Shown here piece after piece: positions 1 through 42,351 of a stretch of DNA of 64,000 nucleotides. Made by a program: the position numbers and the translations under genes. The stretch's first letter is position 1. Each line of letters starts with the position of its first letter. The stretch is from an uncultured Erysipelotrichaceae bacterium (GTDB taxonomy: Bacteria; Bacillota_I; Bacilli_A; RF39; UBA660). The notes below the pieces were generated by a model. The model did not search any database. It was given only the letters and a program-made list of their open reading frames with translations, and was not told where the DNA came from. The stretch spans positions 4,414 through 68,413 of the forward strand of contig CADCJQ010000005.1 in assembly GCA_902801795.1 (NCBI GenBank). The letters run 5' to 3'.

Positions 1-1107
1 AACAGTTGGATAACCTATATAAGGTATTCTTATATTAACAACTCCAATTATCATATCTTCCGTAATCTTATAATTATCAATATCATAATTAGCATCACCT
101 TTAGTATAGTAATATAATTCATCCCCTACTTTTATATTTTTAACTAACCGATGAACAATAATTCTTTTATCATATCGATAGGCAATAATATCACCTATTT
201 GAATATCTTTTTTATTTATTTTTTCAATAACTACAACATCACCTTTTAAAATATTAGGTTCCATAGAACCACTTGCTATAACAATTGCATGATAATGAAA
301 ATAACCGGATGTTATATATACTAAAAAAATCACTAACATTACAGGAATAACTAAATTTCCAATTCTCTTTTTTTGATAATCTCTTTCGATTTTCTCATCT
401 TTTTCTCTTTTATAATATTTATATATTCCATACATAAAAAACATTGGTACAAGTAATTCTACTATTGAATAAATATATTGATTAGGATTTGGAATAATTG
501 GAACAAAGAAGGAATATAAACTAATTATTAAATAATACATGATAGTTGGTTTATATCCTGTTTTATAAGATATATAAGTTGTCAAGATATTTCTTGTAAT
601 TGTTGGTAATATAGTAGTTGCAACATAAATAAAAATTGTATAACTAGAATAAAAAATACTTGTTTCCAATGTTCCTCGTAAATCAGATAAAATAAAGAAA
701 AGAGTGGTTAAAATAATTAGTGTTCTTGATTCTTCTGATTTTTTTACCATCATATAACGTAATATTTCTCTTAAGATAATAGTTACTATAAGTGGTAAAA
801 TTACTTTTATAATACCATTTAAATGTAAATAACTACTTGTTTTAGCAAAAGATAAAATAATTCCTGATAAATAATATAAAAGAAAATATATTAACAAATA
901 AATAAATATTTCAATACAAATATTTTTAGTATCACGATGATTATCTTTTTCAAAACCAAAGATTATCTTAAATAAAAAAAGTAATATGCAATAATATAAA
1001 ACTTCAAAATAGTTTCCTAATATACTTGATACAAAATTATTTAAAAGAAAAGATATTATCAAAACGATAATTTGAAATAGTAATAATTTTTTATAACTTT
1101 TTTTCAT
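1..1107 (-). CDS. Signal peptidase I, SipW-like (S26 family). C-terminus is cut by the window edge. The catalytic domain follows a ~265-aa polytopic membrane extension.
   Basis: Absent from the ORF track because no stop lies in the window. ATG at 1107 follows a GGAG. My translation reads MKKSYKKLLLFQIIVLIISF..., with about 8 hydrophobic helices, then ...HAIVIASGSMEPNILKGDVVVIEKINKKDIQIGDIIAYRYDKRIIVHRLV...YTKGDANYDID... The SGSMEP nucleophile box and GDAN box are typical of SipW/archaeal-type S26 peptidases. The frame stays open to base 1. Confidence 0.75.
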   Translation of the reverse strand, partial: MKKSYKKLLLFQIIVLIISFLLNNFVSSILGNYFEVLYYCILLFLFKIIFGFEKDNHRDTKNICIEIFIYLLIYFLLYYLSGIILSFAKTSSYLHLNGIIKVILPLIVTIILREILRYMMVKKSEESRTLIILTTLFFILSDLRGTLETSIFYSSYTIFIYVATTILPTITRNILTTYISYKTGYKPTIMYYLIISLYSFFVPIIPNPNQYIYSIVELLVPMFFMYGIYKYYKREKDEKIERDYQKKRIGNLVIPVMLVIFLVYITSGYFHYHAIVIASGSMEPNILKGDVVVIEKINKKDIQIGDIIAYRYDKRIIVHRLVKNIKVGDELYYYTKGDANYDIDNYKITEDMIIGVVNIRIPYIGYPTV

Positions 1108-1177
1108 AATTCATCTCCTAAATAATCTTGTTAAAATATATTAAGATATAATATTGCTACTATATCTCAATATTCTT

Positions 1178-1939
1178 TTAAGGATTTGGATTAGTACTTA
1201 CATATACAACCGTTATGTTGCCAGCACTAACAGTAATATCACCATCTAAAGTTGCTGCAATAGTATCTGCTTCTGCATTACCACTAGCATTTCCTTTATA
1301 AGCAAGTTTTACAATTACTGGAGCCGTTCCTGTTTTAGCAGGTAATGTATGACTATATGTTCCACTATATGAAGAACTATATTCTGTTCCCGCAATAGAA
1401 ACTGTTAAATCAAACATTTTAGCACAATCTTCATTACTTATCGTTACAGTATTACCTCCACCCATTTGAGAACCAGCATTCGCAGTTCCTTCGATAGTTG
1501 TCCAATTATTAGTACCAGATGAAGTTGCATTAGTACATGTTAAAGCAACATTACTAAAGTCAACACTATCCAAATAAGCAGTAATTGAACCTTTATTAAG
1601 TAAAGATAATGTATATGTTACTTGTGAACCATAGACCGTTTTAAGAGTAGCATTGGCACCATTTGTTTGTCCAATCGTATATTTAGTAACGTCAACCGTT
1701 CCTCCTGCTAATGTATTATCAGCATTAACACCAGTTTTAGTTCTCGCCGTAGTTACATTTTCAATATCAAGACCATCAGTTGAAAAACCTACATTCCAAT
1801 TATTATCATTAGGTTTAACATCTGAAGTTGTTGAAATTTGAAGACTCGTTGAATAGGCAGCGAATCCAAGAGACAAACCAACGACAGCAACAAATAAAGC
1901 AACAAGAGCAATAATTCTGCTATTTCCATTTTTTTCCAC
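1178..1939 (-). CDS. Secreted Thr/Ser/Asn/Gly-rich protein with a SipW-cognate-like signal peptide (TasA-like candidate substrate)
   Basis: ORF track. The N-terminus is RIIALVALFVAVVGLSLGFAAYSTSLQISTT. The gene lies 70 nt upstream of the SipW-like peptidase on the same strand. Confidence 0.55.
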   Translation of the reverse strand: MEKNGNSRIIALVALFVAVVGLSLGFAAYSTSLQISTTSDVKPNDNNWNVGFSTDGLDIENVTTARTKTGVNADNTLAGGTVDVTKYTIGQTNGANATLKTVYGSQVTYTLSLLNKGSITAYLDSVDFSNVALTCTNATSSGTNNWTTIEGTANAGSQMGGGNTVTISNEDCAKMFDLTVSIAGTEYSSSYSGTYSHTLPAKTGTAPVIVKLAYKGNASGNAEADTIAATLDGDITVSAGNITVVYVSTNPNP

Positions 1940-2363
1940 TTAATTCACCTCCTTCATTTCATAACAAAATAAAGAATAAGTATTAGATAATACCTCAATC
2001 TTTACTACTGTATTCTATTTAATTATGTTTACATTGTAATTTTATCATAATATATTATAATTGTAAAGTAATACTTAAGATTCAATTATTAATTCCAATA
2101 TTAGCGATGATTATTTTTGAAAGAAACCACTATTTCCATTAACTAGAATACAGGAGTTAACATATAAATAGGCTATTAAAATATTATTTTCTTGTCCTAA
2201 TACCAAAAATATTATAAACTTTTTTTCTAAAAATATACTTTTATCTTATATTTATTATAAAACATCTAAATATAAGATAAATAATAAAAAAAATAGCAAA
2301 CTTATTAAATAAAAACTCCCAAAATCATAAAATGTGATATACTATATTATATAGGAGGAAAAG

Positions 2364-4855: not shown

Positions 4856-5860
4856 ATGAATAATGTAATTGAAAAAAATGAATTTGACGAAGTAGTATCT
4901 ATTATTGAGACAAGAAAAAGAAATGCTTATGTAAAAGTTAATGAGGAATTAATTAATATGTATTGGGATGTTGGTAAATATGTTAGTGAAAAAGTTAATA
5001 ATTCTCTTTGGGGAAGTAAAATTGTTCAAAAACTAGCAGATTACATTAAAACGAAATATCCTAATTTATCGGGATTTGATAGAACAGGTATTTACAGAAT
5101 GAAACAATTTTATGAAATGTACTATGATGATGAAATTGTCGCACCATTGGTGCGACAAATAAGTTGGTCAAATAATTTATTAATAATGAGTAGAACAAAA
5201 TCAAATAAAGAACGAGAGTTTTATATCAAAATGTGCATCAAAAATCATTATAAAAAACGCGAACTAGATAGACAAATATCTAGTGCATATTATGAAAGAT
5301 ATATGTTATCCTCTAATAAAGCTAATGAAGGTATTATAAGTACTATTGATGAAGACGATTATCCAAATACAAAATTACTTGATACTTATAGTTTGGAATT
5401 TTTAGATTTACCAAATGAGTTTAAAGAAAAAGACTTAAAAGAAGCTTTAATTCATAATATGAAGAATTTTATTTTAGAAATTGGTAAAGATTTTACTTTT
5501 ATTGGTGAAGAATATTGTATTCGTGTAGGCGATGAAGATTTTTTTATAGATTTATTAATGTTTAATCGTTCAATTAATTGTTTGGTAGCTTTTGAACTTA
5601 AAATTGGTAAATTTAAACCTGAGTATTTATCTAAAATGAATTTTTATTTAGAAGCACTCGATAGACAAGTAAAACAAAAAGATGAAAATCCTAGTGTTGG
5701 AATAATACTTTGTTCTAGTAAAAATAATGAAGTTGTCGAATATTCAATGAGTAGAAATTTATCACCAACAATGATATCAAATTATACTTTAAAATTACCT
5801 GATAAAAAAATATTAGAAAAAAAACTTAAAGAAATAAAGGAATTATTAGATAATCATTAA
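4856..5860 (+). CDS. PDDEXK nuclease, DUF1016/YhcG family
   Basis: 334 aa. The N-terminal YhcG-like region is WDVGKYV...IVAPLVRQISWSNNLLIM. The C-terminal PD-(D/E)xK core is GDEDFFIDLLMFNRSINCLVAFELKIGKF. A GGGAGG RBS is present. Confidence 0.85.
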   Translation: MNNVIEKNEFDEVVSIIETRKRNAYVKVNEELINMYWDVGKYVSEKVNNSLWGSKIVQKLADYIKTKYPNLSGFDRTGIYRMKQFYEMYYDDEIVAPLVRQISWSNNLLIMSRTKSNKEREFYIKMCIKNHYKKRELDRQISSAYYERYMLSSNKANEGIISTIDEDDYPNTKLLDTYSLEFLDLPNEFKEKDLKEALIHNMKNFILEIGKDFTFIGEEYCIRVGDEDFFIDLLMFNRSINCLVAFELKIGKFKPEYLSKMNFYLEALDRQVKQKDENPSVGIILCSSKNNEVVEYSMSRNLSPTMISNYTLKLPDKKILEKKLKEIKELLDNH

Positions 5861-5915
5861 ATTGTCGCACCATTGGTGACACAATTTATTTTGCATACAT
5901 AAGAAGGAAAAGAAA

Positions 5916-6665
5916 AATGAATGAATTCAAAGGTAGATTAGAGCTAAATTAGTACAAAGTGTTATTGATAAAAAGGTTGATACTTACTTTGTAAATAAAA
6001 ATGAACTAACACATTACTACAACGTTGGAAAAAAAATTATTGAGGCTCAAGGTGGAGAGTCAAGAGCAAAATATGGTGATGGTCTTATTAGAAAATTTTC
6101 AAAAAGATTAACAAAAGAATTAAATAAAGGATATAGTTATCGCTCATTAAACTTAATGAGAAAGTTTTATTTATTTCAAAAAGTGCAGCCAGTTGCTGCA
6201 CAATTAAGCTGGTCACATTATATAGAACTATTGTCAATTAAAGATATTAATGAAATAAATTATTATATTGATATTTATCTTAATCAAAATTTAAGCCGCA
6301 ATAAATTAAGAGAAAAAATTAAATCAAAAGAATATCAAAGATTGGATAACAAGACAAAAAATAAATTAATAAATAATGAAGAATTAAATGTTTATGATAA
6401 TATTAAGAATCCAATTTATGTTAATACATATAATAGTAATATTAATAAAGAAGATATACAGGAAAAAGCACTAAAATCATTTATATTAAGAGATAAAGAT
6501 CATTTAGGACAAATTCAAGTTTATATGAATTATGTAGATAAGCACATAAAAAATAATAATCAAAATAAAACTATTGGAATCATTGTATGCAAGAAAGATA
6601 ATAAATATTTAATTGAATACTCATCTGATGAAAGAATAAGAATAACAACTTATGAGTTAGTTTAA
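5916..6665 (+). pseudogene. Decayed DUF1016/YhcG paralog (N-terminal frameshift, nuclease core deleted)
   Basis: The ATG at 5916 with an RBS reads MNEFKGRLELN then stop. The next frame continues AKLVQSVIDKKVDTYFVNKNELTHYYNVGKKIIEAQGG...VQPVAAQLSWSHYIELL, joining track ORF 6156..6665. The segment equivalent to the D...ELK nuclease core of the neighbour is missing. Confidence 0.6.
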
Positions 6666-18738: not shown

Positions 18739-19095
18739 CTATCTATTATTATTGTTATTATTATTGTTATTGTTGTTATTGTTATTCGAAGAACTTCCTC
18801 CAAATGACGAACCACCATTTGATGGTGTATAATGTGGAATTATCTTTAATATAGTATTACTTAATAATAAACCATCAATAGCACTACTAATACATTTACA
18901 GTTAATAACAGAATTTTCTTTTCCATTAATAAGAGCTATACCCTGATTATTACCTTTTATTTGCCCATCTTTATTATTTTTTAAAAACTCATATACTTTA
19001 TCTAATTCTTCTTTGGTTAAATTATAATATTTTGTTAAATCAATACATCTTTTTTTACGTATTAATTCTTCATAAGTTTCTGGTTCTTTATCCAT
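18739..19095 (-). CDS. 118-aa protein with a helical N-terminal region and a C-terminal ...SNGGSSFGGSSS-Asn14-R tail
   Basis: The start overlaps the rSAM stop (ATGGATAA). The tail is encoded by mixed AAT/AAC codons. Confidence 0.6.
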   Translation of the reverse strand: MDKEPETYEELIRKKRCIDLTKYYNLTKEELDKVYEFLKNNKDGQIKGNNQGIALINGKENSVINCKCISSAIDGLLLSNTILKIIPHYTPSNGGSSFGGSSSNNNNNNNNNNNNNNR

Positions 19096-20821
19096 TTTCT
19101 TCCTCCTTTACATAATAAAATTCTATATTTTGAAATGGTAAATTAATTGCTTGAATATGATAAAAAGCATTATTCTTTTGTTTTGTATAATGATAATCTC
19201 TTAATGAAGATGTTGTAAAGAAAATATTATTTAAAGAAGAATATTCATCTTTATATTCTTTTATTAAATTAGATATATCAACTACATAATAATCATCATC
19301 TATATTTTTTTCTAATACGCCTTTATATATTTGATGTGTTGCAACATGTCTTTGTTTATTTCTTTCTTCATCACCATAAGTAATCATATCGCCACTAAGA
19401 ATCATAATATATAAAGAATTATTGTTAGGATAATCACAAACTTCATTTATTAAATGCTTTTTCATATATATCTTAACAACACTTTTATCACCAATATAAA
19501 TAATATCTCGAGTTTTTTTTAATATTTGCGATTCTAAAAAATGTTTTACACTGTCTATTTCTAAAATAAAAGAATTCGAATCATAAATATATTTTAAATT
19601 CTCGTCTTTTATGATAATACTTTCTAAAGATGGATATTCATTATTAACTTTATTTGGAATATAATTACTAACGTCTTCTAAACGCATCTTATTAACATAT
19701 TGATAAACACTTTCTTCATTAAAATTATCTTTTAAATATCCTCTATCCAAGTACATTTCTTTTTGTAACTTACAAGTATAACTTTTATTAGAATGATAAT
19801 TATTCTTTACAAACGGACATCCTGTTTTGCATAAATATAAATATCCACATTTAATACATTCATCATTTAATTTCTCTTTATTATGATTAAGAAAAATTTT
19901 TTGAAAGGCTGTATTAAGTATTTCAGAAACTGTATTTTGATAAATATTACCATAATAGTAATCTTTATTTTTTTGTCCTCTAACACAAGAATAAATATCA
20001 CCATTTTTCTCTAATAAGAAAAATTTTTCACCGCAGTTATCGCAATTAGAACAATATGTTGGTCCAAATTCATCAAACCAAGGACCATTCACCCCATAAT
20101 CTAAATCCGTTCCATCAAATTCTTTGTGCATTCTCTTATAAAAAGCAACTTGTTCTTCTTCGTTCATATGATGAAGAATACCATTAGAATTATAATCAAA
20201 GCCAATCATAAAATTAAAATCATTCATGTCAAGACAAGTATTTTTATGCAGATATTTAATATCTTCAATAATTTCATCTATTTTATCATAATGTTCTTTA
20301 AAAATTGTTGCTGATACTTTCTTTTTATTCGGAATATCTTCTAATAGTTTAATATTATCTAAAATCTTTTCTAATGTTTTTTGATTACCTTTTGTTACCC
20401 TATAAGTATTATGTAATGAAAATGGCAAATCCAGACTACCTGATATAGAAACATTAAATTTTTTTATTGTATCTAAGTGTTTTTCTATATTATATAAGTT
20501 TGTTTTAATATGTACATTTCCAACTTTAAAACCATTAGCCTTAATAACATCCTTATTTTGATTATAATAATTATCTATATATTCAACAATTTCATAAAAT
20601 TCATTTTTAGATAATGTGGTAACCTCACCTCCATGAAGTGATATATTAAATGGCATAACATTACTTTTATGAAATTTATCAACAGCATATTTTAACGTAT
20701 CAATTGCTTTATATTTTTGATATTCATCTTTAGTGTTATCTTCTAGATAACAATATTTACATGCCATATTACAATTCATTGTAGGAACATATAATAAATG
20801 TATAAATTTTGTTTCAACCAT
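19088..20821 (-). CDS. Radical SAM/SPASM-domain enzyme with a ~200-aa C-terminal extension of unknown function
   Basis: CNMACKYCY (CxxxCxxC) near the N-terminus. SPASM-type cysteines are CSNCDNCGEKF...SC and CIKCGYLYLCKTGCP (Cx2Cx5Cx3C). I place the start at MVETKF (ATG 20821), which follows AGGGGA and lies 13 nt after the upstream stop. The track start at 20881 would overlap the upstream gene. Confidence 0.85.
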   Translation of the reverse strand: MVETKFIHLLYVPTMNCNMACKYCYLEDNTKDEYQKYKAIDTLKYAVDKFHKSNVMPFNISLHGGEVTTLSKNEFYEIVEYIDNYYNQNKDVIKANGFKVGNVHIKTNLYNIEKHLDTIKKFNVSISGSLDLPFSLHNTYRVTKGNQKTLEKILDNIKLLEDIPNKKKVSATIFKEHYDKIDEIIEDIKYLHKNTCLDMNDFNFMIGFDYNSNGILHHMNEEEQVAFYKRMHKEFDGTDLDYGVNGPWFDEFGPTYCSNCDNCGEKFFLLEKNGDIYSCVRGQKNKDYYYGNIYQNTVSEILNTAFQKIFLNHNKEKLNDECIKCGYLYLCKTGCPFVKNNYHSNKSYTCKLQKEMYLDRGYLKDNFNEESVYQYVNKMRLEDVSNYIPNKVNNEYPSLESIIIKDENLKYIYDSNSFILEIDSVKHFLESQILKKTRDIIYIGDKSVVKIYMKKHLINEVCDYPNNNSLYIMILSGDMITYGDEERNKQRHVATHQIYKGVLEKNIDDDYYVVDISNLIKEYKDEYSSLNNIFFTTSSLRDYHYTKQKNNAFYHIQAINLPFQNIEFYYVKEEENG

Positions 20822-20834
20822 AACTTTTCCCCTA

Positions 20835-22448
20835 TTAATAATACTCAATATATGTTGGACTTTCTTTAAATGCACGTTCATTTATGATAACATCTCGAGG
20901 TAATGTAATCGTTTCTAAACTATCACATCCCCTAAATGCCGATGATCCAATTTCTTTTAATAAACTATCACTTGGAATTGCAACTTCTTTTAAAGATATA
21001 TCTCCATAAAATGCATGAGCTGCAATTCTAGTTACATTCTTAGGAATATTAATCGATTTTAGTGATATGCAATTTTCAAATGTATTACCTCTAATTTCTG
21101 TTATTCCAGAAGGAATATTAATAAATTCTAAACTTGTGGCATTATAAAATGATTCTCCTCCTAAATATGTTAAAGTGCTCGGTAATTCCACCTTTTTTAT
21201 TGACGAGCAATTTTCAAATGCACCGCCACCTAAATATTGTAAATTCTTTGGAAGACGTACTTCCTTTAAACTAACATCATTGTAAAATGCTTCACCACGA
21301 ATTTCTCTAATTGAATCTGGCAATGTTACACTTTGTAATAAAAACATATTAGAAAAAGCGTTTCCTCTTAAACTTATTACACGTTCTCCTTTATATGTTT
21401 CAGGAATAGAAACAGTTTTAAAATTGCTTAACCCAAAGACATAATAACGAACAGCATAACCTCCATCTACTTTTTCATATAATATTCGAGGTTTAATAAA
21501 TAATAGCAACGACAAAACAATAGCTACCAATATACCACTAAGTTTTAAAACAATTAAATTATTTTCAACCAAAGAATTTTTAGTATTCATAACAATATTA
21601 CTAATCTTTTCATTTGGTCTTGCCTTAACTTCTTTTTTTAAATATTTTAATAAATCATATTTTTTAGTAATTTTAGAAAATATGATTAAAATAATCAATC
21701 CTATTAAATAAGTTAATATTGGAAAATGAAAAAATATCATAGTTAGATAAACAAAAACCAAAAATGAAAAAATAATTGTTAATATTCTTTTTCTTTTTAT
21801 AACTTCTGAAGGAATAAGTTTTTTGCTTAAATCAATACCAGCCTTTGTCATTTCTTTCTTTAAAAATTCTTCTAATAATAAATCTTCAGAATTACTATAT
21901 ATTGAATCATAATCACTGCTTTTGGCAAAAGTAACTGGAATTACTTTGACATTATCATTTTCAAAAGGCGCCCCACATTTAGAACAAACTTTATCATTTA
22001 CGTCTAAAGTATTTCCACAATAAGTACATTTTAAGGTAACTCGATTATCATTTGCATCTTTAATTGTATTACTTTTTAATTTATTTAAATTACTACCAAA
22101 AGGTGATTTTTTGGTTATTAATGCCGTAATTGGGACAATAACAAATGCTCCAATAAAAACTAATCCAAAATCAAAAAAAGCTATTGATGTAGTTACAAAG
22201 AAATCAAAAAATAATAATATTCCTACTCTTATACCAAACATTATCCAGAATAATCTCTTCGAATTATCTTTAGCTAACATTTCCGAAAGAGGTTTTAAAA
22301 CAAAAACAGACATATGAATGGATACAAAAGCTTCCATCATTATTGCCCCTAAAACACCAATTGATGAACCTTCTAAAGAAGAGCTTGCATTAACAATTTG
22401 AGGGATAAACATTAAAAATCCAATTAAAAAATACTTTATTTTTTTCAT
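20835..22448 (-). CDS. Polytopic membrane protein with an internal zinc ribbon and a C-terminal BspA-type leucine-rich repeat (LRR_5-like) domain
   Basis: Signal/TM segments, CTYCGN...CSKCGA, then repeats of the pattern IP..V..I...AF..C.SL (for example NCSSIKKVELPSTLTYLGGESFYNATSLEFINIPSGITEIRGNTFENCISLKSINIP). Confidence 0.7.
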   Translation of the reverse strand: MKKIKYFLIGFLMFIPQIVNASSSLEGSSIGVLGAIMMEAFVSIHMSVFVLKPLSEMLAKDNSKRLFWIMFGIRVGILLFFDFFVTTSIAFFDFGLVFIGAFVIVPITALITKKSPFGSNLNKLKSNTIKDANDNRVTLKCTYCGNTLDVNDKVCSKCGAPFENDNVKVIPVTFAKSSDYDSIYSNSEDLLLEEFLKKEMTKAGIDLSKKLIPSEVIKRKRILTIIFSFLVFVYLTMIFFHFPILTYLIGLIILIIFSKITKKYDLLKYLKKEVKARPNEKISNIVMNTKNSLVENNLIVLKLSGILVAIVLSLLLFIKPRILYEKVDGGYAVRYYVFGLSNFKTVSIPETYKGERVISLRGNAFSNMFLLQSVTLPDSIREIRGEAFYNDVSLKEVRLPKNLQYLGGGAFENCSSIKKVELPSTLTYLGGESFYNATSLEFINIPSGITEIRGNTFENCISLKSINIPKNVTRIAAHAFYGDISLKEVAIPSDSLLKEIGSSAFRGCDSLETITLPRDVIINERAFKESPTYIEYY

Positions 22449-22527: not shown

Positions 22528-25500
22528 CTATATTTTTTTATATTTACTATCTATAATTGAATATAAATAAAGATTAACTTTTTTAGAAGATATTTTACTT
22601 ATGTAATCACGATAACCAGATAGTTGCTTTATATAGGCTTCATCATCAATATTTTTTAATTTATAATCAATAATATCAATATAATCAGGATATTCTAGCA
22701 TTAAGTCAATAACTCCATTTTTTTCCTCTTCTAAATTATTATCAATAAATTCATATTCTTGATATACTTTAGCCTCTTGAATATTCTTCATTAATTCACT
22801 ATTCATCAATTCTTTAATTTTTATGACATATTCTTCTTCAATTCCATCATAATTAGGTTCATGAAAATCCATTGTTTCTAAATAATAATGTATTTTAGTA
22901 CCAAAGTCCATTACTTCTTTTTGGTTTTTATCAATTAAATGAACATTACTTTTTGAAAAATGACTTTTCTCTTTTTCACATTTCGTTATTTTAGGATAAT
23001 TTACTAAATTTATTTTTTGATTACTCTTTTTCATATTATTAAATAAATTATTACCATTAATTAAATTATAATCTTTGGTTAAATTTAAAGTATTTACATC
23101 TATTTCTTTAATATAAGTATTAACCTTTGATTTAATAGATTCTAAGATATCAGAAAAACAACGATACCCTTCTCTTACAGAACTATCTACAAGACCATCA
23201 TTATCATATATTTCATCTTTATCTTTTAACGGAAGAATAAAAATCATTTTTTCTTTCGCTCTTGTTAAGGCAACATAAAATAACCTTATTTTCTCACTTA
23301 TCTCTTCTTGTAAATATTTCTTTTTAAATAATTCACGATAAATAGTACTTCCTATTCCTTCATCAAAAAATGGTGTAATAATACCTAATTCATTATCAAA
23401 AATAATACGATCTTTTAAATCACTATCATTAAATTTCTTAGTTAAACCAGGGAAATAACAAATATGATATTCAAGTCCCTTTGATTTATGAATCGTCATT
23501 ATTTTAACACTATTACCATCTTCTTTATTTAATGGAAAAGTTATATTAGTTCCACTATCAAAAATGTTATTTAAGAAATCAACAAAATGAGTATAATCAT
23601 ATCCCATACTATTTAATGTTTCTGATAAAGTATATAGGTATTCTACTTTAACTAAATTTTCATTAAGAGAAGATATCTTTCTTAATTTATTATAAATATC
23701 AAATTTATTAATGATTTCATCTAATATCATTGATATTGTTTTTTCCGAAACATTAGTTGATATATCACGAATAATTTTAAATATATCTGTTTCTTCATAA
23801 CTATTATTTCTTATTACATCAAATAAATAATTATCATTTAAATCACATAAAAAACTTCTTCCAATGGATAAAAAACAATACTCTATTTCTTGTTTATTAC
23901 CATTATTACTTAATAAATTAATTAAACGAAAGATATTCTTAATAACTAAAAATAAATTACTATTCGTTAAATATTCATCTTTATAAATACTTAAAGGAAT
24001 ATGCTTGTAAAGAAAGATTTTTTTATATAATTCAAACGTTGTACTTCGATCTATTAAAATTGAAAAATCATTATAAGTAATATCTCTTAATATTTTATTA
24101 TCTTTATCAAATACTTGATAATGAGAACTTATCTTTTTATTAATATCATCTGCAATAATAAAAGCTTCGATTTCATCTTTATCAAAACCTATTTCTTTAT
24201 CATACAAATAATTATATATTTCAAAATCATTATTTTGGGAGGTTTTACCTTCTTCATTATAAGTAATATTACCAAAATTCATTCGATGTGATTTAATATA
24301 ATCTGCTCCTCCAATACTATCACTCATAATATAATCAAAGATTAAATTAATATTATTTAATACTTCTTCACGAGATCGAAAATTCTTTAATAAATCTATT
24401 TTCATTCCACCATTATTCTTTTCATAATTATTATATTTTTCACGAAAGATATTCGGGTTAGCATTACGAAAACGATAAATAGATTGTTTAACATCACCAA
24501 CCATATACAAGTCATCATTACAAATAAGTGATATAAAAGCTTCTTGCAAATCAGAAGTATCTTGGTATTCATCAACTAATATTTCTAAAAAATAATTTTT
24601 TATTTCATCACGAATATTATTGTTTTCCATAACTACTTTAATAGCCATTTTACTAATATCAACAAAGTCATATAAATCATTTTCATGTTTATAAAATTCT
24701 ATTTCACTATCTAATTTATTAATAATATCAATGATAGTCTCAACATAAGGTTTAGTCATTAAGATATTATTTTTTATTTCATCAATACTTGCAAAAGAAG
24801 TTAAACTCTTTATTTCATCTAAAACCCCTTTTAAATCATCCTTTGTTTTTTTAGTAAATTCATCACTTCCTCTTGGAAGATTAGGAAGTCTTGTAATATT
24901 ATCAACACCTGTTTTTATATCAAGATAATTATCACTATTAATTAAGCTATTACACATATCCATTAGTTTAGTAAAATAATCGGTATCTACCATATCACCT
25001 AGTTTATATAAAGTAATATCAAATAATTTAACCTTACTTTTAAGTAATTCTTCATATTGTTTTACTTTATCCATAATGTATTCTTCACTATAATATTTTT
25101 CAAGATAATTATCTAAGTATTCTTTCTTATCATATTTCATATTAAGTTTATTATTTAAATTTAAGATAGATGCTTTAATATCATCATCATCTTTAATACA
25201 AAAATCATTAATAAGTTTACAAAAATTATCATCTTTTTCTTGATACTTTTCTTCCATAACTTCATCTAAATATTCTTGTGTTTTAATATTTAATACATTA
25301 TTTTCGATAATATTAACATTCTTTTTAACATTTAATAAATAATGATATTTCTTAACTATCGATAAAGAATAACTATCAAAGGTTGTTATATAACTATTAT
25401 CTAATTTATTTAATTGTTCAACTAAATTATTTTTTTTTATTTTCTTCCTTATTCTTTCTTTCATTTCAGCGGCAGCGGCTTTCGTAAAAGTAAGTATTAA

Positions 25501-25650
25501 TAATCTATCCACATCCGTTCCATGCATAACTTTTTCTAATACACGTTCGGACAATACTGCTGTTTTACCACTACCGGCTCCTGCAGATACAATTATATTT
25601 TTTCCACATTCATAAATTGCACTTTCTTGTTCTTTGGTCCAACTTGGCAT
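22528..25650 (-). CDS. addA: ATP-dependent helicase/nuclease subunit A (AddA/RexA)
   Basis: UvrD-like N-terminus (WTKEQESAIYECGKNIIVSAGAGSGKTAVLSERV), the VDEYQDT motif, and a C-terminal PD-(D/E)xK region (GVIDLMLEY...IIDYK). Confidence 0.9.
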   Translation of the reverse strand: MPSWTKEQESAIYECGKNIIVSAGAGSGKTAVLSERVLEKVMHGTDVDRLLILTFTKAAAAEMKERIRKKIKKNNLVEQLNKLDNSYITTFDSYSLSIVKKYHYLLNVKKNVNIIENNVLNIKTQEYLDEVMEEKYQEKDDNFCKLINDFCIKDDDDIKASILNLNNKLNMKYDKKEYLDNYLEKYYSEEYIMDKVKQYEELLKSKVKLFDITLYKLGDMVDTDYFTKLMDMCNSLINSDNYLDIKTGVDNITRLPNLPRGSDEFTKKTKDDLKGVLDEIKSLTSFASIDEIKNNILMTKPYVETIIDIINKLDSEIEFYKHENDLYDFVDISKMAIKVVMENNNIRDEIKNYFLEILVDEYQDTSDLQEAFISLICNDDLYMVGDVKQSIYRFRNANPNIFREKYNNYEKNNGGMKIDLLKNFRSREEVLNNINLIFDYIMSDSIGGADYIKSHRMNFGNITYNEEGKTSQNNDFEIYNYLYDKEIGFDKDEIEAFIIADDINKKISSHYQVFDKDNKILRDITYNDFSILIDRSTTFELYKKIFLYKHIPLSIYKDEYLTNSNLFLVIKNIFRLINLLSNNGNKQEIEYCFLSIGRSFLCDLNDNYLFDVIRNNSYEETDIFKIIRDISTNVSEKTISMILDEIINKFDIYNKLRKISSLNENLVKVEYLYTLSETLNSMGYDYTHFVDFLNNIFDSGTNITFPLNKEDGNSVKIMTIHKSKGLEYHICYFPGLTKKFNDSDLKDRIIFDNELGIITPFFDEGIGSTIYRELFKKKYLQEEISEKIRLFYVALTRAKEKMIFILPLKDKDEIYDNDGLVDSSVREGYRCFSDILESIKSKVNTYIKEIDVNTLNLTKDYNLINGNNLFNNMKKSNQKINLVNYPKITKCEKEKSHFSKSNVHLIDKNQKEVMDFGTKIHYYLETMDFHEPNYDGIEEEYVIKIKELMNSELMKNIQEAKVYQEYEFIDNNLEEEKNGVIDLMLEYPDYIDIIDYKLKNIDDEAYIKQLSGYRDYISKISSKKVNLYLYSIIDSKYKKI

Positions 25651-25747
25651 AACATCACCTTCTTTTATATCTTATCATAAAATGATATTTTTTTATTAAA
25701 AAACTTTTGTCACTATTAATAACAAAAGTTTATATTAATACATTAAT

Positions 25748-27751
25748 TTATTTAATTACATAAGGTTTACTTGCAGTTCCATCGGCATCATTATCAACGA
25801 TTGTAATGCCATTTTTAAGGGATAAAACTGGACGAAGACCACGACTCTTATTTACAATGCCATAATAAATAGCTCCATTTAGTGTAGAAAAGTCTGCGGA
25901 ATTATTAACACTAGTAAAATTGTAAGGCGACATCAACCAATAATCTGTTCCATTATTCAAATAGCTTATCACCGAACCTAAAACACCTCCACCAGATAAA
26001 ATCATTTCATCTGAAGATAATAATGCTACCGGATAATCTAAAGCTCCATTTCCTTTGCCATTTTTAATTGTAAAAGCATCATTTTTTCTACAAGATAAAC
26101 TCGGCCTTTTTATCACATTTTGTCTTTCATATCCAGAATAATATACAGTACTATTACTTATTCCTATCATTCCATCATTTGGATTTAATCCACCTAAAGA
26201 ATATATACTTCTATCATTACAAAATAATGTATCTTCTAATTTGTTTTCATAACTAGTATTATCAATATTATCCTCATACCAAGAATCTATCATTTTTTTT
26301 GCATTAGAATCATTATTGTTTTCTTGCATTTCTTTTAGTGCATCTTCAATGCTTTTTCCATTAATTAATGTAAAGTACAGATAATATTGTTTTCCGTTTC
26401 TTGTACCATACGCATAATAGTATCTTATATTTTCGCAAGTTCCATCAGTTGTTGTTAAATTGCATGTATAGTGATGATTATAATCTATCCATTCTTTAAC
26501 ATTTGTTAATGTATATAAATTATTGGTACTATCATAAATAAAACTATTACCAAAATATGCACTATCTTCTGCCTCTCCATTTGTTACCTCATACACGCTT
26601 CCATACATATAGCCAACATATGCTGGTGAATTAGCATTTTCGTTAAATGCAAATGTATTTACATCTGTTCCATCGATATTCAATGTTATTTGAGAATCAG
26701 TTCCTGTATTATCGCAATCTGGTACTTCACTTGTTCCTTTATTTTCGCCATTATATATTAATTTAACACCACCAGTATCGGTTGTTCTTACCATCTTCCA
26801 ACATTTATTAGCAAATAATACATTATTGTTTTCTACTGCTCCTCGATAATACATTACTGGATATGCATCATTTGATGTACTACTAAATGTATATACTCCT
26901 TTTCCATTGGTATCACTTGATATATTACTAAAATCTATTCCTGGCGTTGTATTATTTACGTATGTACTATTAATATTATCCATTACTGTTTGTCTTTCTA
27001 CTACATCATATAATGTTTCTTCTACCCAGATATCTTCATTTGCTTCTACTTTTACTTGGAATGATATTCCATTTTGTTGTAAAGAATTCCATTCATCAGT
27101 TGTTAATACTACTCTTCCATCTACCCAATCATTAGTTGTTCCCATTAAATCTGTTTCATTTCCATCATAGGTATCTGATATGGCTATTTTATTTTTATCT
27201 AAATAAGCTTTAATGGTTATTTTTCCATTTATCCCACTTGGTGTTCCTAAGGTAGTATTCTGTGGTATATATCCTACTAAGATATTACCATCTCCCATAA
27301 TACCATTACCTGATAATCTTTTATATATTTTAGTATCTTTACTTTCTCTTTCTTCAAAATAATTATTTTCATACGTTCCAAGTCCTTCAACACTTATATC
27401 TAAACTTATCGGTACTATTTGACCTGTTGATGTTGTAACATGAGAGTTTACTGCTGATACTAAATATTCAATACCACCTACATAATCAGTATCTCCTTCT
27501 ACTTCTATTTCAAATGTTCCAACTTTAGTTGTATCATTCATTATTCCTGTTTCTGTTGGATCTATTGGAAATAAATTAGTTAAATTAATTGTTTCTGTTT
27601 GTCTTGAAATAAAACTTATTCTTCCTGTCTTAATTACATTAGCTTCCCCTGTTCTTGTATAATTAAAGAATGCATACGTTACACTACCTACTGTTAATAT
27701 TAACGTAAATATTGTTATTACTAATAACATTTGTTTTTTACTTTTTATCAT
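25748..27751 (-). CDS. Secreted large protein: SipW-cognate-like signal, conserved N-terminal module, and a C-terminal domain ending in a YWLMSP...RGLRPVLSL motif
   Basis: N-terminus MIKSKKQMLLVITIFTLILTVGSVTYAFFNYTRTGEANVIKTGRISF. It is paralogous to 28024..29930 and, in the N-terminal module only, to 44911..48078. Confidence 0.75.
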   Translation of the reverse strand: MIKSKKQMLLVITIFTLILTVGSVTYAFFNYTRTGEANVIKTGRISFISRQTETINLTNLFPIDPTETGIMNDTTKVGTFEIEVEGDTDYVGGIEYLVSAVNSHVTTSTGQIVPISLDISVEGLGTYENNYFEERESKDTKIYKRLSGNGIMGDGNILVGYIPQNTTLGTPSGINGKITIKAYLDKNKIAISDTYDGNETDLMGTTNDWVDGRVVLTTDEWNSLQQNGISFQVKVEANEDIWVEETLYDVVERQTVMDNINSTYVNNTTPGIDFSNISSDTNGKGVYTFSSTSNDAYPVMYYRGAVENNNVLFANKCWKMVRTTDTGGVKLIYNGENKGTSEVPDCDNTGTDSQITLNIDGTDVNTFAFNENANSPAYVGYMYGSVYEVTNGEAEDSAYFGNSFIYDSTNNLYTLTNVKEWIDYNHHYTCNLTTTDGTCENIRYYYAYGTRNGKQYYLYFTLINGKSIEDALKEMQENNNDSNAKKMIDSWYEDNIDNTSYENKLEDTLFCNDRSIYSLGGLNPNDGMIGISNSTVYYSGYERQNVIKRPSLSCRKNDAFTIKNGKGNGALDYPVALLSSDEMILSGGGVLGSVISYLNNGTDYWLMSPYNFTSVNNSADFSTLNGAIYYGIVNKSRGLRPVLSLKNGITIVDNDADGTASKPYVIK

Positions 27752-27804
27752 TTTTACTATCTCCTTTTCTTAATTAATTATTATCTTATATAATCATATA
27801 TCAT

Positions 27805-27854
27805 CAACTATCATTATAAAAAAGGATTACAACTATCATTATAAAAAAGGATTA
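27805..27854. repeat. Perfect tandem duplication of a 25-bp unit (caactatcattataaaaaaggatta x2)
   Basis: Read directly from the sequence. On the minus strand each unit reads TAATCCTTTTTTATAATGATAGTTG and contains a TATAAT box. It lies 54-103 nt upstream of ATG 27751. Confidence 0.9.
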
Positions 27855-27871
27855 ATGGTCTATAAAAATGA

Positions 27872-27881
27872 CCCCCCCCCC
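27872..27881. repeat. C10 (G10 on the coding strand) homopolymer in the promoter region
   Basis: Ten consecutive C counted at 27872..27881. This stands out in such an AT-rich sequence. Confidence 0.9.
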
Positions 27882-28023
27882 AATATTAGTATTAGTTAAC
27901 ATTGCTACCTCCTATTTTTATACTATAATCTTAGCACAGTTTTTAATGGTTGTAAATAATGAAATTATAAAAATGATATGAATATTACCAATCAATATTC
28001 ATATCATATTTTAATAAATAACT

Positions 28024-29930
28024 TTATTTAATTACATAAGGTTTACTTACTGTTCCATCTGCATCATTATCAACTATTGTAGTGCCATTTTTTAGGGATA
28101 AAACTGGACGAAGCCCCCTATTATTCACCAAATTATCACTATATATTGATCCATTCGACAAAATTCTATTCATATAAGACATTCGATCAAAGCTTCGGGG
28201 TGACATTAGATAATAACTTGTCCCAATTGATAAGTAATATGACTCATTCGTCGTATTTTTTTTTCCTCCTGCTAATATTGCTTCATCATCTATCAATAAT
28301 GCTATAGGATAATTCAACATTCCATTTCCTCTTCCGTTTGTCAAAGTAAAAGCATCATTTCTTCGACAATAAAAATTAGGTTTAAATTTCAACGCATCTT
28401 TTGAATAAATTAATACTGCACCTGAGCTAGCATTACCTGCATAACCTCCATTTGGATTTAATCCTCCTAATTGATAAATGCTTCTATCATTACAATATAT
28501 AGTATCTTCTATTCGATTATCAAAATCAGTATTATCAATATTTTCTGCATACCATCTTTCAATTTTATCTTTAGCATTTGAATTAATTATATTTAATTGC
28601 ATTTCGTCTATCGCATCTTTTATACTTTTTCCATCAGATAAAGTAAAATACTCTAGTCCCCAAAAATAATATCTTATACTTAAACATGTTCCATTGCTTG
28701 TTGTTTCATTGCAAGTATAGTGGTGAAATTCATCTATACCTACTTTTGCATCTGTCAATGTATATAAATTGTTAATGTTATCGTATGTATATCCACTTCC
28801 AAAGTATACATTATTTGCTGGTGCTCCAATATTCGTGTCATAAATAGCCCCATACATATACCCATTATATGCTGGTGAATTATTCTTTACATTAAAAGCA
28901 AATTTGTTTGTTTCTGTTCCGTCTATGTTTAATGTCATTAATGTTTCTTCACCAGTATTATCACAATTAGGTGCTTCTTCTGTTCCTTTGTTTTCTCCAT
29001 TATAAATTAATTTAACACCACCTGTATCTGTCGTTCTTACCATTTTCCAACATTTATTGGCAAACAAGACATTATTGTTTTCTACTGCTCCTCTATAATA
29101 CATTACTGGATAGGCATCATTCGCAGTACTACTGAAGGTATATACTCCTTTTCCATTAGTATCACTTGATATATTACTAAAATCTATTCCTGGTGTTGTA
29201 TTATTTACAAAAGTACTATTAATATTATCCATTACTGTTTGTCTTTCAATAATATCATAAAGTGTTTCTTCTACCCATAATCCTTCATTAGCTTCAACTT
29301 TTACTTGAAAACTGATTCCATTTTGTTGTAATGCATTCCATTCTTCTGTTGTTAAATTAACTCTTCCATTTACCCATTCATTCGTTGTTCCCATTAAATC
29401 TGTTTCATTTCCATCATAGGTATCTGATATTGCTATTTTATTTTTATCTAAATATGCTTTAATAGTTATTTTTCCATTTACTCCATTTGCTGTTCCTAAA
29501 GTAGTATTTTGTGGTATATATCCTACTAAGATATTACCATCTCCCATAATTCCATTACCTGATAATCTTTTATATATTTTAGTATCTTTACTTTCTCTTG
29601 CAGTAAAATAATTAGTGTTTTGAGTACCTAATCCTTCTACTGTTACATCTAAGCTTATTGGTACTATTTGACCTGTTGATGTTGTAAGATGAGAGTTTAC
29701 TGCTGATACTAAATATTCAATACCACCTACATAATCAGTATCTCCTTCTACTAATTTGTTAAATTAATTGTTTCTGTTTGCCTTGTTATAAAATTAATTC
29801 TTCCTACTTTTAATGTATTTGCTACTCCTGTTCTTGTATAATTAAAGAAGGCATACGTAATGCTACCTACTGTTAATATTAACGTAAATATTGTTATTAC
29901 TAATAACATTTGTTTTTTACTTTTTATCAT
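28024..29930 (-). pseudogene. Disrupted paralog of 25748..27751 (about 70-nt deletion and frameshift after the signal peptide)
   Basis: ATG 29930 gives MIKSKKQMLLVITIFTLILTVGSITYAFFNYTRTGVANTLKVGRINFITRQTETINLTN then stop. The next frame resumes VEGDTDYVGGIEYLVSAVN... and joins track ORF 28024..29547. Confidence 0.7.
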
Positions 29931-29995
29931 TTTGATTCTCCATATTTTTATAAATTAATACTATCATATTTTGGAATTAAAGTAAATATTTTTTA

Positions 29996-32356
29996 TTATT
30001 CTTCGATTAATTCCTCATCTTCATCTTGTTCCGAATCACTTGTTAAATAAACTTTATTCTTTTCTTCCATATAACAAATATCTTTAAATTCACAATATTT
30101 ACAAGATTCATTTTTTCCTTTAATTATTTTAGGATTAATACTAAAGTCTCCTTCTAAAATATTATTCATCGCATTAATTATTTTATCTTCGGTAATCTTT
30201 AAAATACTATTTATGGCTTCATCACTTAGTGGATGAGCAGAACTACCTAAATTACCATCTTTATTGACTTTCATTCCTTTAATCATTTCACTATTTTCAT
30301 AAGTTGCATCAAATACTTCTAGTCTTTCCATATTATCAGAACTATATCCAACTAATTTTAAATTATCATATTTTTGATCAAGATAACTTTTTTTACCTTT
30401 TTTAATATTTATATTTAAAATATGTTGTAAGTAAAAACCTGTAAACTTCATATTATTTAAAAGATTACTATTATTAACTAAATATAAATATATTGGTAAC
30501 TGCATGGATAAACCAAATTCTAAATTATCAATTTTAATATCAGGATTACCTGTTTTATAATCAATTATACTTACTAATGTTTCCCCATTTTTTTCTTTAT
30601 ACATTATTTTATCGACAAATCCTTTAAAATGAACATAAGGACTATTCTTTAATGTAATATCTATCTTTTCTTCATATAACATTTTATTAAAACCTGTAAT
30701 AAACTGATGTTTTTTTATTACTTCAATAACGTAGGCTAAATCATTTTTTAATTTATTTAAAAAGAATGTTTCTTTATTACTAAATACACGATCTTTTAAA
30801 AATAATTCATATCTTTTATCTAAATCAAAGTCATCATCATTCATATGTCTTAATACATCATGAAATAAATTACCAATAATAGTCATAAAGGTTTCTTCAA
30901 AAATATTAATCTTTAAAATATTACTTAAATAATATTTAAAACCACATTTATAGTAATTATCAATACTACTATAAGATAATGTTAATTCATTATTTAGGTA
31001 ATTAATTAAATTATCTTTATTTATTCCACTAAACTCATTATCATAACTTAAATAATCATTTTCACCATAATTATCATATAACATATCCATATTATTGTTT
31101 TTAATACCAAATTTAACATAATCATCTAAATATGTTGTATATAAGTTTTTATTAGACATTTCAGAATAATTAAAACTTCTTTGATATTCTTTTTCTTCAT
31201 AATCCATATCATCTAATAAAATACTAGGATAATATGAATTAAAGGATGATGTTTCTTTATAGGAAATAGTTAAGTTATTAATACTACTTAGATAATTTAA
31301 AGTATTTTCTTTACTTAATTTATTAATATCACTAACGAAAGGTAAACCAACTAAATCTTTAATATTATCTGTGATATATTCCGTATCTAACATTAATCTT
31401 GGAATACTAGGATTATTAAAACCAACTAAGAAAATATATTCATCATCACCAACATAATCAAAAACATTTTTTATTTTAATGGTATTATCATAGTTTTTAC
31501 TACTTACTTTAGTATTTAATAAATCATACTTTATTAACTCTTTAATATCTTTTAAATCAAAATCATGATATTTATTTAAAAGATTAATTAATATTCCATA
31601 AAGATTATTATCTTGGTAATTATCTAAAAAAGAATTTATTTCTTCCATACTTTTTTCTTCAATAATCATTTGATAAAATTTATTACCAATAACTGTTCCT
31701 AAGATATTATCAGTATTATTTATAGAAAGAGGAATTTGGTAGTAAATAGAATATTTTTTTAATAAGGTATTATATTCACTATCTATATTCATTAAACTAA
31801 TTTTATTAATATCAATACCTTTATTTAGTAAATCAATTATTTGTTGAAAAACCATTTCTACTTCATCATTAATATTTTTTATATTATAGATAGTAAATTT
31901 ATCATTTTTCTTTTCATAATTAATTATTTGAGGTTCATTAAATAAACTTAGTTTCCATTTGTCTAAATTACCATAACCATAAATAACTACTTGATATTTC
32001 TTTAATGTTTTAGAAAATAATTTATCATAAATAAGTAAATGATTATCATCTAATTCTTTTTTTAATTTTACTAAATAATCTAGTTTTTCATTATGATATT
32101 CTTTATCTTCAATATATAATAAATTATCTAAAAAAGTAATGGCATTATCAACTTTCATTCCTTTTTTTACTAAATAATTAATAGTTTTAATATCATAATC
32201 AAATTTTATTTTTTTAATGTATTCTTCCATTGTCATAAACTTAAGAACAAGAAGTTTTTTATTATTACTTAAGTAATTTAAAATAGCTTTCTTATAACTA
32301 TTAGGACATATAATTAATAAATTATTTTTAAGAAATTCAAACATCATTATCACCAT
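29996..32356 (-). CDS. addB: ATP-dependent helicase/nuclease subunit B (AddB/RexB)
   Basis: 786 aa. The C-terminal nuclease has four Fe-S cluster cysteines (CGFKYY... and CKYCEFKDIC) and an IIDYKTG motif. Walker A is degenerate. The true start may be the MMFEF ATGs 9-12 nt downstream of the track start. Confidence 0.85.
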   Translation of the reverse strand: MVIMMFEFLKNNLLIICPNSYKKAILNYLSNNKKLLVLKFMTMEEYIKKIKFDYDIKTINYLVKKGMKVDNAITFLDNLLYIEDKEYHNEKLDYLVKLKKELDDNHLLIYDKLFSKTLKKYQVVIYGYGNLDKWKLSLFNEPQIINYEKKNDKFTIYNIKNINDEVEMVFQQIIDLLNKGIDINKISLMNIDSEYNTLLKKYSIYYQIPLSINNTDNILGTVIGNKFYQMIIEEKSMEEINSFLDNYQDNNLYGILINLLNKYHDFDLKDIKELIKYDLLNTKVSSKNYDNTIKIKNVFDYVGDDEYIFLVGFNNPSIPRLMLDTEYITDNIKDLVGLPFVSDINKLSKENTLNYLSSINNLTISYKETSSFNSYYPSILLDDMDYEEKEYQRSFNYSEMSNKNLYTTYLDDYVKFGIKNNNMDMLYDNYGENDYLSYDNEFSGINKDNLINYLNNELTLSYSSIDNYYKCGFKYYLSNILKINIFEETFMTIIGNLFHDVLRHMNDDDFDLDKRYELFLKDRVFSNKETFFLNKLKNDLAYVIEVIKKHQFITGFNKMLYEEKIDITLKNSPYVHFKGFVDKIMYKEKNGETLVSIIDYKTGNPDIKIDNLEFGLSMQLPIYLYLVNNSNLLNNMKFTGFYLQHILNINIKKGKKSYLDQKYDNLKLVGYSSDNMERLEVFDATYENSEMIKGMKVNKDGNLGSSAHPLSDEAINSILKITEDKIINAMNNILEGDFSINPKIIKGKNESCKYCEFKDICYMEEKNKVYLTSDSEQDEDEELIEE

Positions 32357-42312: not shown

Positions 42313-42323
42313 TGTGAAATTTT

Positions 42324-42351
42324 AAAGAGTGTCAAAAACGCTCTTTTTTTT
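42324..42351 (+). terminator. Rho-independent terminator after tRNA-Met
   Basis: aaagagtgt, caaaa loop, acgctcttt, followed by a T run. Confidence 0.6.

Follow-up and report, generated by a model that had tools for sequence, protein, structure and literature searches.

Gene content at the locus

We analyzed a 64,000-nucleotide stretch of DNA (hereafter, the window; G+C content, 25%) from contig CADCJQ010000005.1 of an uncultured, low-GC Erysipelotrichaceae bacterium of gut or rumen origin. Our subject is a membrane-bound signal peptidase encoded at its left edge, the secreted protein encoded next to it, and a family of larger secreted proteins that may be processed by the same enzyme. The peptidase gene is a 369-codon open reading frame that begins at position 1107 on the minus strand and leaves the window at the left edge. 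Its homologues and the copy on the source contig (L005; ENA ERZ27280724 k141_541453, 74 kb), which stops five residues further on (...PTVWINEL), indicate a full protein of 374 residues, of which just five, WINEL, fall outside the window together with the stop codon. The same gene is present, identical, on three independent assemblies, and it has more than 1400 homologues, the best 120 of which are 53-90% identical and nearly all 373-377 residues long.

The gene immediately upstream encodes a secreted protein of 253 residues. The two genes are separated by 70 nucleotides, with no terminator-like site between them, and a promoter-like site (TTTACA-17-TAAAAT with TG) lies upstream of the 253-residue protein gene; promoter-like sites in this consensus scan were not more numerous than in shuffled sequences. 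The features of this region, with the evidence for each, are the following (AF2, AlphaFold2 model; ER, endoplasmic reticulum).

1..1107, minus strand: signal peptidase fusion, residues 1-369 of 374 (translation, source contig L005, homologues, TIGR02228)
1..309, minus strand: ER/archaeal-type S26 catalytic domain (PF10502, TIGR02228, fold matches, conserved residues)
310..372, minus strand: ninth transmembrane helix, predicted at about residues 246-266 (AF2 helix 238-266, loop charges)
400..1107, minus strand: eight-helix membrane domain, residues 1-236 (AF2 helices, conservation, no family match)
1178..1939, minus strand: 253-residue secreted beta-sandwich protein, candidate fiber subunit (open reading frame, 93 homologues, AF2)
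1817..1858, minus strand: candidate donor strand of the 253-residue protein, residues 28-41 (predicted from the N-terminus)
2039..2067, minus strand: promoter-like site upstream of the 253-residue protein gene (consensus scan)

The catalytic domain

A reading of this DNA made from the sequence only had drawn attention to an unlisted open reading frame at 1..1107 carrying the SGSMEP and GDAN boxes of SipW-like S26 peptidases. Both boxes are indeed present, SGSMEP at residues 279-284 (nucleotides 256..273) and GDAN at residues 337-340 (nucleotides 88..99), and the catalytic part of the protein exceeds the cutoffs of two family models: TIGR02228, the archaeal/ER-type signal peptidase I (87.5 bits; cutoff, 51.85), and PF10502 (29.2 bits; cutoff, 22.9). 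The equivalog model for SipW of Bacillus, NF046067, was not reached (66.4 bits; cutoff, 190). Among 107 relatives at 27-48% identity, S281, H319 (nucleotides 151..153), and D338 are 95-98% conserved, and D344 is conserved as well, which brings the range to 94-98%. The catalytic set thus has a histidine where P-type enzymes have a lysine. Judging from this conservation, we expect an active Ser-His-Asp-type enzyme. The top Foldseek matches of the catalytic domain are the human signal peptidase subunits SEC11A and SEC11C (7p2p, 7p2q; E 1e-4), followed by SipA of Streptococcus pyogenes (4n31) and by LexA/UmuD. The 64-kb window showed no motif of a P-type signal peptidase.

The AF2 model of the peptidase, built from 63 sequences, has a mean predicted local distance difference test score (pLDDT) of 82 and places the beta-rich catalytic domain at residues 272-361, with no C-terminal anchor after it. 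Ten helical segments are counted ahead of the catalytic domain: eight belong to the membrane domain, and beyond them a charged helix runs on into a ninth membrane helix (AF2 238-266). The loops on the predicted cytoplasmic side contain 23 lysine and arginine residues in total, whereas those outside contain 2, which places the N-terminus in the cytoplasm and the catalytic domain outside. The model thus shows a protein with nine predicted transmembrane helices, an N-terminus predicted to be inside, and an intact S26 domain predicted to be outside. This agrees with the earlier count of roughly 8 hydrophobic helices within about 265 residues preceding the catalytic domain, the ninth helix being the anchor. 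In the same reading, SipW of Bacillus subtilis was described for contrast as small and with a single N-terminal anchor. The first part is right, since SipW has about 190 residues; the second is not, since SipW has a second anchor, C-terminal of its catalytic domain (both points are general background).

The eight-helix membrane domain and its fusion to the peptidase

The helices of the membrane domain span residues 3-25, 27-50, 60-84, 96-123, 128-142, 155-182, 186-201, and 210-233 in the AF2 model. Its most conspicuous feature among the 107 relatives is a near-invariant pair, E114 (nucleotides 766..768) and R117 (nucleotides 757..759), at the cytoplasmic end of helix 4; G82, F87, N173, P203, P206, and P221 are also conserved. 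No Pfam or NCBIfam family covers this domain, either when it is searched in isolation or in 11 family members, and a search of PDB sequences with the membrane-domain profile gave chance matches alone. The fold comparison gave a weak match to the intramembrane protease Rce1 of Methanococcus maripaludis (4cad; TM-score, 0.37/0.50; probability, 0.94; E 0.11). However, there is no conserved histidine in the whole domain: the position of the FxxxH motif is occupied by F159...A163, the HxxxN/D motif is missing, and PF02517 (CPBP) did not match even at E 10. The histidines and the asparagine that define the Rce1 class are absent. We treat the membrane domain as non-catalytic. We also considered an internal 4+4 repeat, but the hhalign comparison, in which helix 4 pairs with helix 8, was not significant (E 0.043).

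A profile of the membrane domain was scored against 1.84 billion representative proteins and matched 1002 clusters (50% identity) at E<=1e-3; at E<=1e-10 the number is 578. Among the 150 matches listed, the complete ones are nearly all 365-390 residues long; thus, the membrane domain hardly ever occurs apart from the peptidase, and the fusion across so many clusters is real and old rather than the product of a missed stop. The clusters with a named source come from uncultured low-GC Bacilli or from rumen assemblies. Two long matches (812 and 458 residues) were examined as possible fusions to the DUF5305 domain; both proved to be truncated peptidases joined to unrelated sequence, and they are probably assembly or gene-calling artifacts.

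A conserved gene neighborhood

The gene order around the peptidase is conserved: a gene for a small secreted beta-sandwich protein is followed by the peptidase gene and then by a gene for a DUF5305 protein, often with genes for large adhesins next. We found this order in seven loci (L001, L002, L005, L008, L009, L010, and L013) whose peptidases are 30-100% identical to that of the window, and homologues of the small subunit were found beside the peptidase in the related loci examined. In five of these loci (L001, L002, L008, L009, and L010) the order is the same at 55-69% peptidase identity. The source contig itself, L005, extends beyond the window and has a DUF5305 gene directly downstream of the peptidase gene (401 residues as listed, 393 as called; PF17231, 40.8 bits; cutoff, 29), then a gene for an 879-residue adhesin with DUF285/PARCEL and Flg_new domains and the N-terminus ...LSFGWA/SYNASLRVSLGALV (here and below, a slash marks the predicted cleavage site), and then a gene of the FFNYT family described below, which is cut by the contig end and is the fourth such gene of this bacterium that we found.

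The most distant of the seven loci, L013 (5821..16166; G+C content, 38%), keeps the layout at about 30% peptidase identity. Its peptidase gene is preceded by a gene for a 272-residue protein (...IAYA/ALSSTLNIDG), and its DUF5305 gene is followed by a gene for a 4391-residue beta-helix protein whose N-terminus, ...VVYA/ALCS, resembles that of the small subunit. A DUF5305 gene is present in L001, L002, L008, L009, L010, L013, L014, and, by resemblance, L003. L014 has only the peptidase and DUF5305 genes, whereas L003 contains the same genes in a different order together with a 216-residue protein that has a classical SipW-type signal (...GGTYAYF). In L003 (2741..4752), the gene for this protein and a type-IV-pilin-like gene (165 residues, KGFSLVEVLAVV...) adjoin those for the small subunit, DUF5305, and the peptidase; the record is labeled Muribaculaceae, and its G+C content of 27% and gene content suggest mis-binning.

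Sporulation genes were observed near the peptidase cluster in three loci: SpoIVA in L001 (5323..6819), SpoVAC/SpoVAD/SpoVAEB in L010 (7292..9016), and Cse60 in L008 (17042..17218). Their presence indicates that these uncultured low-GC Bacilli are probably spore formers.

The small secreted protein

The 253-residue protein has a basic N-terminus and a hydrophobic stretch that ends in ...GLSLGFA/AYSTSLQISTTSDV, with cleavage predicted after A27 (GFA/AYS); G25, F26, and A27 are invariant in its 93 homologues. In the AF2 model, residues 45-250 form a confident beta-sandwich, and residues 4-42, which comprise the signal helix and the candidate donor strand, are unplaced, with pLDDT below 50. In the earlier reading, the gene had been described as TasA-like and the signal as ending in GFAAYSTS. 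The signal and the adjacent open reading frame (1178..1939) stand, but the comparison with TasA found no backing in sequence or fold. No Pfam model matched any of 51 family members, a PDB search with the family profile returned no TasA-type chain and just a spurious match to a WD40 repeat, and Foldseek gave nothing below E 0.03, with no TasA-type structure among the 50 matches listed. When the family was compared by hhalign with TasA and with AbpX of Pyrodictium abyssi, short stretches covering the signal and the strand region aligned and nothing else did.

The N-terminus of AbpX, as given in the supplement of a preprint, is ...GLTYA/QWSETLSLSATI. The predicted mature end of the window protein, AYSTSLQISTTS, shares its register: position 2 is aromatic, and positions 6 and 8 are hydrophobic. 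Across the family, nearly every member has Y or F at position 2 (usually F, but Y in the window protein), with L at position 6 and I at position 8. At position 12, most members have Ala, the window protein has Ser, and AbpX has Ile. Position 4 is T or S in the small subunit, with no acidic residue, and D in the 745-residue adhesin of L001. The mature window protein has a pI of 4.4, and its Asp and Glu content is 8%, in contrast to 15% in AbpX.

The FFNYT proteins

Three genes far from the peptidase gene encode larger secreted proteins that share the motif FFNYTRTG.

25748..27751, minus strand: 667-residue FFNYT protein, signal ...VTYA/FFNYTRTG, intact (open reading frame, family profile)
28024..29930, minus strand: FFNYT paralogue with a 70-bp deletion, frameshifted (six-frame reading, DNA alignment with the paralogue)
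44911..48078, minus strand: 1055-residue FFNYT protein, signal ...VTYS/FFNYTRTG, DUF285/PARCEL repeats, intact (domain matches)

The sequence-only reading had listed all three as carrying signals that resemble the SipW-cognate class. The first and third genes are intact; the second is not. Relative to the intact adjacent copy, its deletion junction lies at about 29752/29753 on the minus strand, and the codons for ...LFPIDPTETGIMNDTTKVGTFEIE are lost, which makes it either a pseudogene or an assembly error. The three signals are also paralogous and do not count as independent occurrences. In the 667-residue protein, about 215 residues at the N-terminus form a conserved domain, and the C-terminal part is weakly similar to DUF6273. 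For the first 245 or so residues of the FFNYT proteins we detected 211 homologues, mostly of 400-428 residues, and FFNYTRTG is invariant across family members that are merely 44-64% identical.

A weak but consistent resemblance to TasA is seen at the N-terminus of these proteins. In a search with PF12389 (camelysin/TasA), FFNYT residues 3-64 aligned with profile positions 3-62 below the cutoff (17.0 bits; cutoff, 22.5; E 0.0056), and one FFNYT homologue has a precomputed match to this model. A profile of 103 FFNYT sequences aligned by hhalign with residues 1-66 of TasA in register, a weak match (E 4.1e-5; probability, 70%). Residues 28-261 of the TasA sequence used here agree with PDB 8aur; the chain of this structure begins at A28, and thus SipW cleaves at TWA/AFND. 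In the alignment, which spans this cleavage site and the first 37 mature residues, TYA/FFNY... stands opposite TWA/AFND..., and ..INLTNLFPID, equally far from the cut, stands opposite ..VNLSNLKPGD. A PDB search with the FFNYT profile did not find TasA. The SipW-cognate class had been named by its accession, TIGR04088. The accession exists and the model is present in the library used, where the 216-residue L003 protein scores 14.4 bits (cutoff, 19), but at E<=10 it matched none of the three N-termini compared with it (the 253-residue protein, 25748..27751, and 28024..29930), a search in which HMMER filters may hide weaker matches. We found no mention of TIGR04088 in the papers searched.

The two adjacent FFNYT paralogues sit in a region (22528..32356, minus strand) between genes for an AddB-like PD-(D/E)XK nuclease (29996..32356) and an AddA/UvrD-like helicase (22528..25650), and the pair looks like an insertion inside an addBA pair. 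The third gene lies beyond a tRNA-Met gene (42236..42312, plus strand) that adjoins a phage-type integrase gene (42390..43445, minus strand) and is followed by a gene for a ParA-like ATPase (48611..49444); the region 42236..49444 may be an integrated element carrying an adhesin gene.

Motifs at the predicted cleavage sites

The secreted proteins described above fall into two classes by the junction at the predicted cleavage site. Class A, G[FWY][AS]/[AS][YF]S.SL.I, is found on the 253-residue protein and on adhesins of 740-880 residues, which keep the AbpX-like register. Class B, TYA/FFNYTRTG.AN.I..GRI.F, is found on the dispersed FFNYT proteins. In both families, conservation peaks in the 10-20 residues around the predicted cleavage site, where mean column identities are 0.93 and 0.82 versus about 0.6 elsewhere, and small residues are invariant at positions -1 and -3. 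To our knowledge, the cleavage junctions of ordinary Sec signals are not conserved in this way. The other secreted proteins of the window have ordinary signals or lipoboxes and lack both motifs. When the FFNYT and 253-residue families were compared by hhalign, the signal region alone aligned; the comparison therefore provides no evidence for homology of the two classes past the N-terminus.

A proposed dedicated peptidase for fiber subunits and adhesins

We interpret the locus as a surface system of the type of the TasA superfamily, with a dedicated peptidase that uncovers N-terminal donor strands on a fiber subunit and on adhesins, and we put the probability of this reading at about 0.6. The pre-proteins of both classes would be exported by Sec and held in the membrane by the hydrophobic signal. 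The external Ser-His-Asp domain would then cut after the small residue at -1 (GFA/A, TYA/F), as SipW does with TasA at TWA/AFND, and expose an amphipathic N-terminal beta-strand. The new strand may insert into a neighboring subunit by donor-strand complementation, building a fiber of the 253-residue protein, and adhesins with the same kind of strand would join this fiber or form related ones. The unplaced candidate strand in the monomer model of the 253-residue protein gives such strand donation indirect support. DUF5305 could assist as an accessory subunit, and the fused eight-helix domain might bind or position the signal helix or thin the membrane, a role proposed for accessory subunits in the eukaryotic signal peptidase complex.

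The idea of a dedicated peptidase-substrate system had already been put forward in the sequence-only reading, with a possible part for the membrane domain in substrate capture or assembly. The conserved order of genes, the adhesins adjacent to them, the TasA register of the FFNYT proteins, and the reality of the fusion fit the core of that idea, whereas two of its original props found no support: a TasA-like neighbor, and a match to TIGR04088, the lack of which that reading had itself counted as refuting. Several points weigh against our interpretation. On the substrate side, the 253-residue protein matches neither TasA nor AbpX nor any solved pilin significantly, the FFNYT N-termini miss TIGR04088 and stay below the PF12389 cutoff, and no similarity between FFNYT proteins and TasA is detectable past residue 66 or so. 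In the two other contigs checked, the FFNYT genes are usually away from the peptidase gene, and hence their link to the peptidase rests on motif similarity and one adjacency. On the enzyme side, the membrane domain, which we take for a non-catalytic scaffold, is of uncertain origin and its proposed role is a guess, and the lack of a P-type motif in the window would also suit a general role. Finally, cleavage, polymerization, and substrate specificity are all inferred.

What a general role would mean is that the peptidase is the housekeeping enzyme of the organism, a chance neighbor of an abundant secreted protein, and that the motifs serve another purpose. The databases do label the protein plainly as "signal peptidase I," and the window contains no second signal peptidase motif. 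However, the window covers a small share of the genome, its other secreted proteins lack the class A and class B motifs, the peptidase remains tied to the small subunit and DUF5305 over about 30-100% identity, and ER-type peptidases of Bacillota, such as SipW, are dedicated enzymes. We consider a housekeeping role improbable. Slightly less probable still is that the N-termini are uncleaved anchors and the peptidase domain is a chaperone or assembly factor, as SipA is in pilus polymerization in S. pyogenes. SipA is among the top fold matches, and at about 17-20 residues the hydrophobic stretches are long, but SipA lacks the catalytic residues that are 95-98% conserved here, and both the invariant small residues at -1 and -3 and the register with the known TasA cleavage site point to cleavage.

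The remaining alternatives concern the membrane domain. It could itself be an active intramembrane protease of the CPBP/Rce1 type, a second enzyme that acts on the same substrates or breaks down the signal peptide after its release. The fold match to 4cad would suit this proposal, as would the near-invariant Glu-x-x-Arg in helix 4, where CPBP enzymes carry EExxxR; against it, TM-scores of about 0.4-0.5 are common among unrelated eight-helix bundles, PF02517 did not match, and the absence of the catalytic residues makes an active second protease highly unlikely. Alternatively, the fusion might be an artifact of a missed stop or frameshift joining two genes, a question that the sequence-only reading had itself raised. 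With full-length homologues throughout the best 120, complete members of the 1002 distant clusters nearly all fused, and the identical gene on three independent assemblies, the fusion stands, and an artifact has practically no probability left.

The interpretation of the locus as a dedicated peptidase-substrate system can be taken one step further, in a form that we regard as speculative and would not expect to hold in full. The nine-helix peptidase and DUF5305 could together be a membrane assembly platform for monoderm bacteria, in which the eight-helix domain (possibly a dead descendant of CPBP/Rce1) holds the signal helix and couples cleavage to strand hand-over to the growing fiber, and many unrelated adhesin domains are displayed on such fibers via the shared N-terminal module. 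Such a platform would be a functional counterpart of the usher of chaperone-usher pili and, in its architecture, would correspond to a eukaryotic signal peptidase complex built as one chain in a bacterium.

Comparison with known systems

Systems of the TasA, AbpX, and haloarchaeal fimbria type are known, and a multi-helix peptidase with a DUF5305 partner is already noted in print. In the AbpX loci of bacteria and archaea, the dedicated signal peptidase I has ten transmembrane helices, DUF5305 is a likely accessory subunit that is sometimes fused to the peptidase, and tip and minor subunits enter the AbpX fiber by donor-strand complementation (bioRxiv 10.64898/2026.01.04.697558, January 2026). 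The loci described here resemble them in several ways. The small secreted subunit has an amphipathic strand at its N-terminus (a candidate donor strand in our case), and its second mature residue is aromatic. With it go a multi-helix peptidase, putatively dedicated here (likened by description: "ten TM" there, ten helical segments here), DUF5305 as an accessory protein, and neighboring adhesins and tip or minor subunits, and both kinds of loci occur in Bacillota. They differ in that the 253-residue protein has no detectable sequence or fold match to AbpX, has T or S in place of an acidic residue at position 4, and is less acidic (8% versus 15%), and in that neighboring regulators and SLH or LPXTG anchors are missing here.

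In Haloarcula, deletion of the TafD peptidase stops both the processing of TafA and the formation of fimbriae, and TafG is a DUF5305 protein (PMC11821415). These Tat-fimbriae (TafA/C/E, TafD, TafG) resemble the present loci, as we interpret them, in a dedicated S26 peptidase, DUF5305, and donor-strand fiber subunits. However, the system is archaeal and exports its substrates via Tat, and TafD, with four transmembrane helices, carries an additional external domain at its C-terminus.

The tapA-sipW-tasA operon of B. subtilis likewise has an ER-type signal peptidase gene beside the gene of its fiber substrate, and TasA and the FFNYT proteins share the cleavage context T-[WY]-A/x-F-N and ..INL[ST]NL.P.D at equal distance from it. 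In contrast to the peptidase described here (374 residues, nine predicted transmembrane helices before the catalytic domain), SipW is small and lacks the eight-helix domain; the present loci lack TapA, their partner is DUF5305, and the putative substrates include modular adhesins of 400-1055 residues. The eukaryotic signal peptidase complex (SEC11A/C, SPC12, SPC22/23, and SPC25; 7p2p, 7p2q) provides the best fold match for the catalytic domain and also has extra membrane helices around a single-anchor Ser-His-Asp peptidase, but there they are separate subunits with no detected likeness to the eight-helix domain. CPBP/Rce1 (4cad) resembles that domain weakly in fold; both are eight-helix bundles in which helix 4 carries a conserved pair of Glu and Arg. 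It differs in having the catalytic histidines and asparagine, in its Pfam family, which the domain does not match, and in the spacing of the pair (ExxxR, versus ExxR here). We found nothing in the literature on this peptidase family in low-GC Bacilli.

Fibers of the TasA type bind together the biofilms of Bacillus and the mats of archaea, and their processing and assembly at the membrane are poorly understood. The present family is a compact and widespread case, with about 1000 clusters at 50% identity, in which the peptidase is permanently fused to a large membrane domain, paired with DUF5305, and accompanied by a recognizable class of putative substrates, large modular adhesins among them. 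What is new is a large uncharacterized bacterial branch of the multi-helix peptidase family, putative substrates whose core bears no recognizable likeness to TasA, a family of modular adhesins, dispersed and with N-termini of the TasA type, and a defined signature of the membrane domain, E114/R117. If our interpretation is correct, the motifs GFA/AFS.. and TYA/FFNYTRTG would be a practical tool for listing fiber- or surface-displayed proteins of uncultured bacteria, E114 and R117 would be obvious targets for probing the extra domain, and the link to the accessory subunits of the signal peptidase complex of eukaryotes could be tested.

Other genes in the window

No LPXTG-like motif was found in any open reading frame of the window longer than 150 residues. 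A further secreted protein, of 706 residues (36031..38151, minus strand), has three SpaA prealbumin-like domains of the type seen in Gram-positive pilins and adhesins. At 19088..22448 (minus strand), a radical SAM/SPASM gene (19088..20881) overlaps the end of a gene (20835..22448) for a protein with BspA-type leucine-rich repeats and a zinc ribbon. Two adjacent genes at 4856..6665 (plus strand) encode DUF1016/YhcG nuclease-like proteins of 334 and 169 residues, the second of which resembles a shortened copy.

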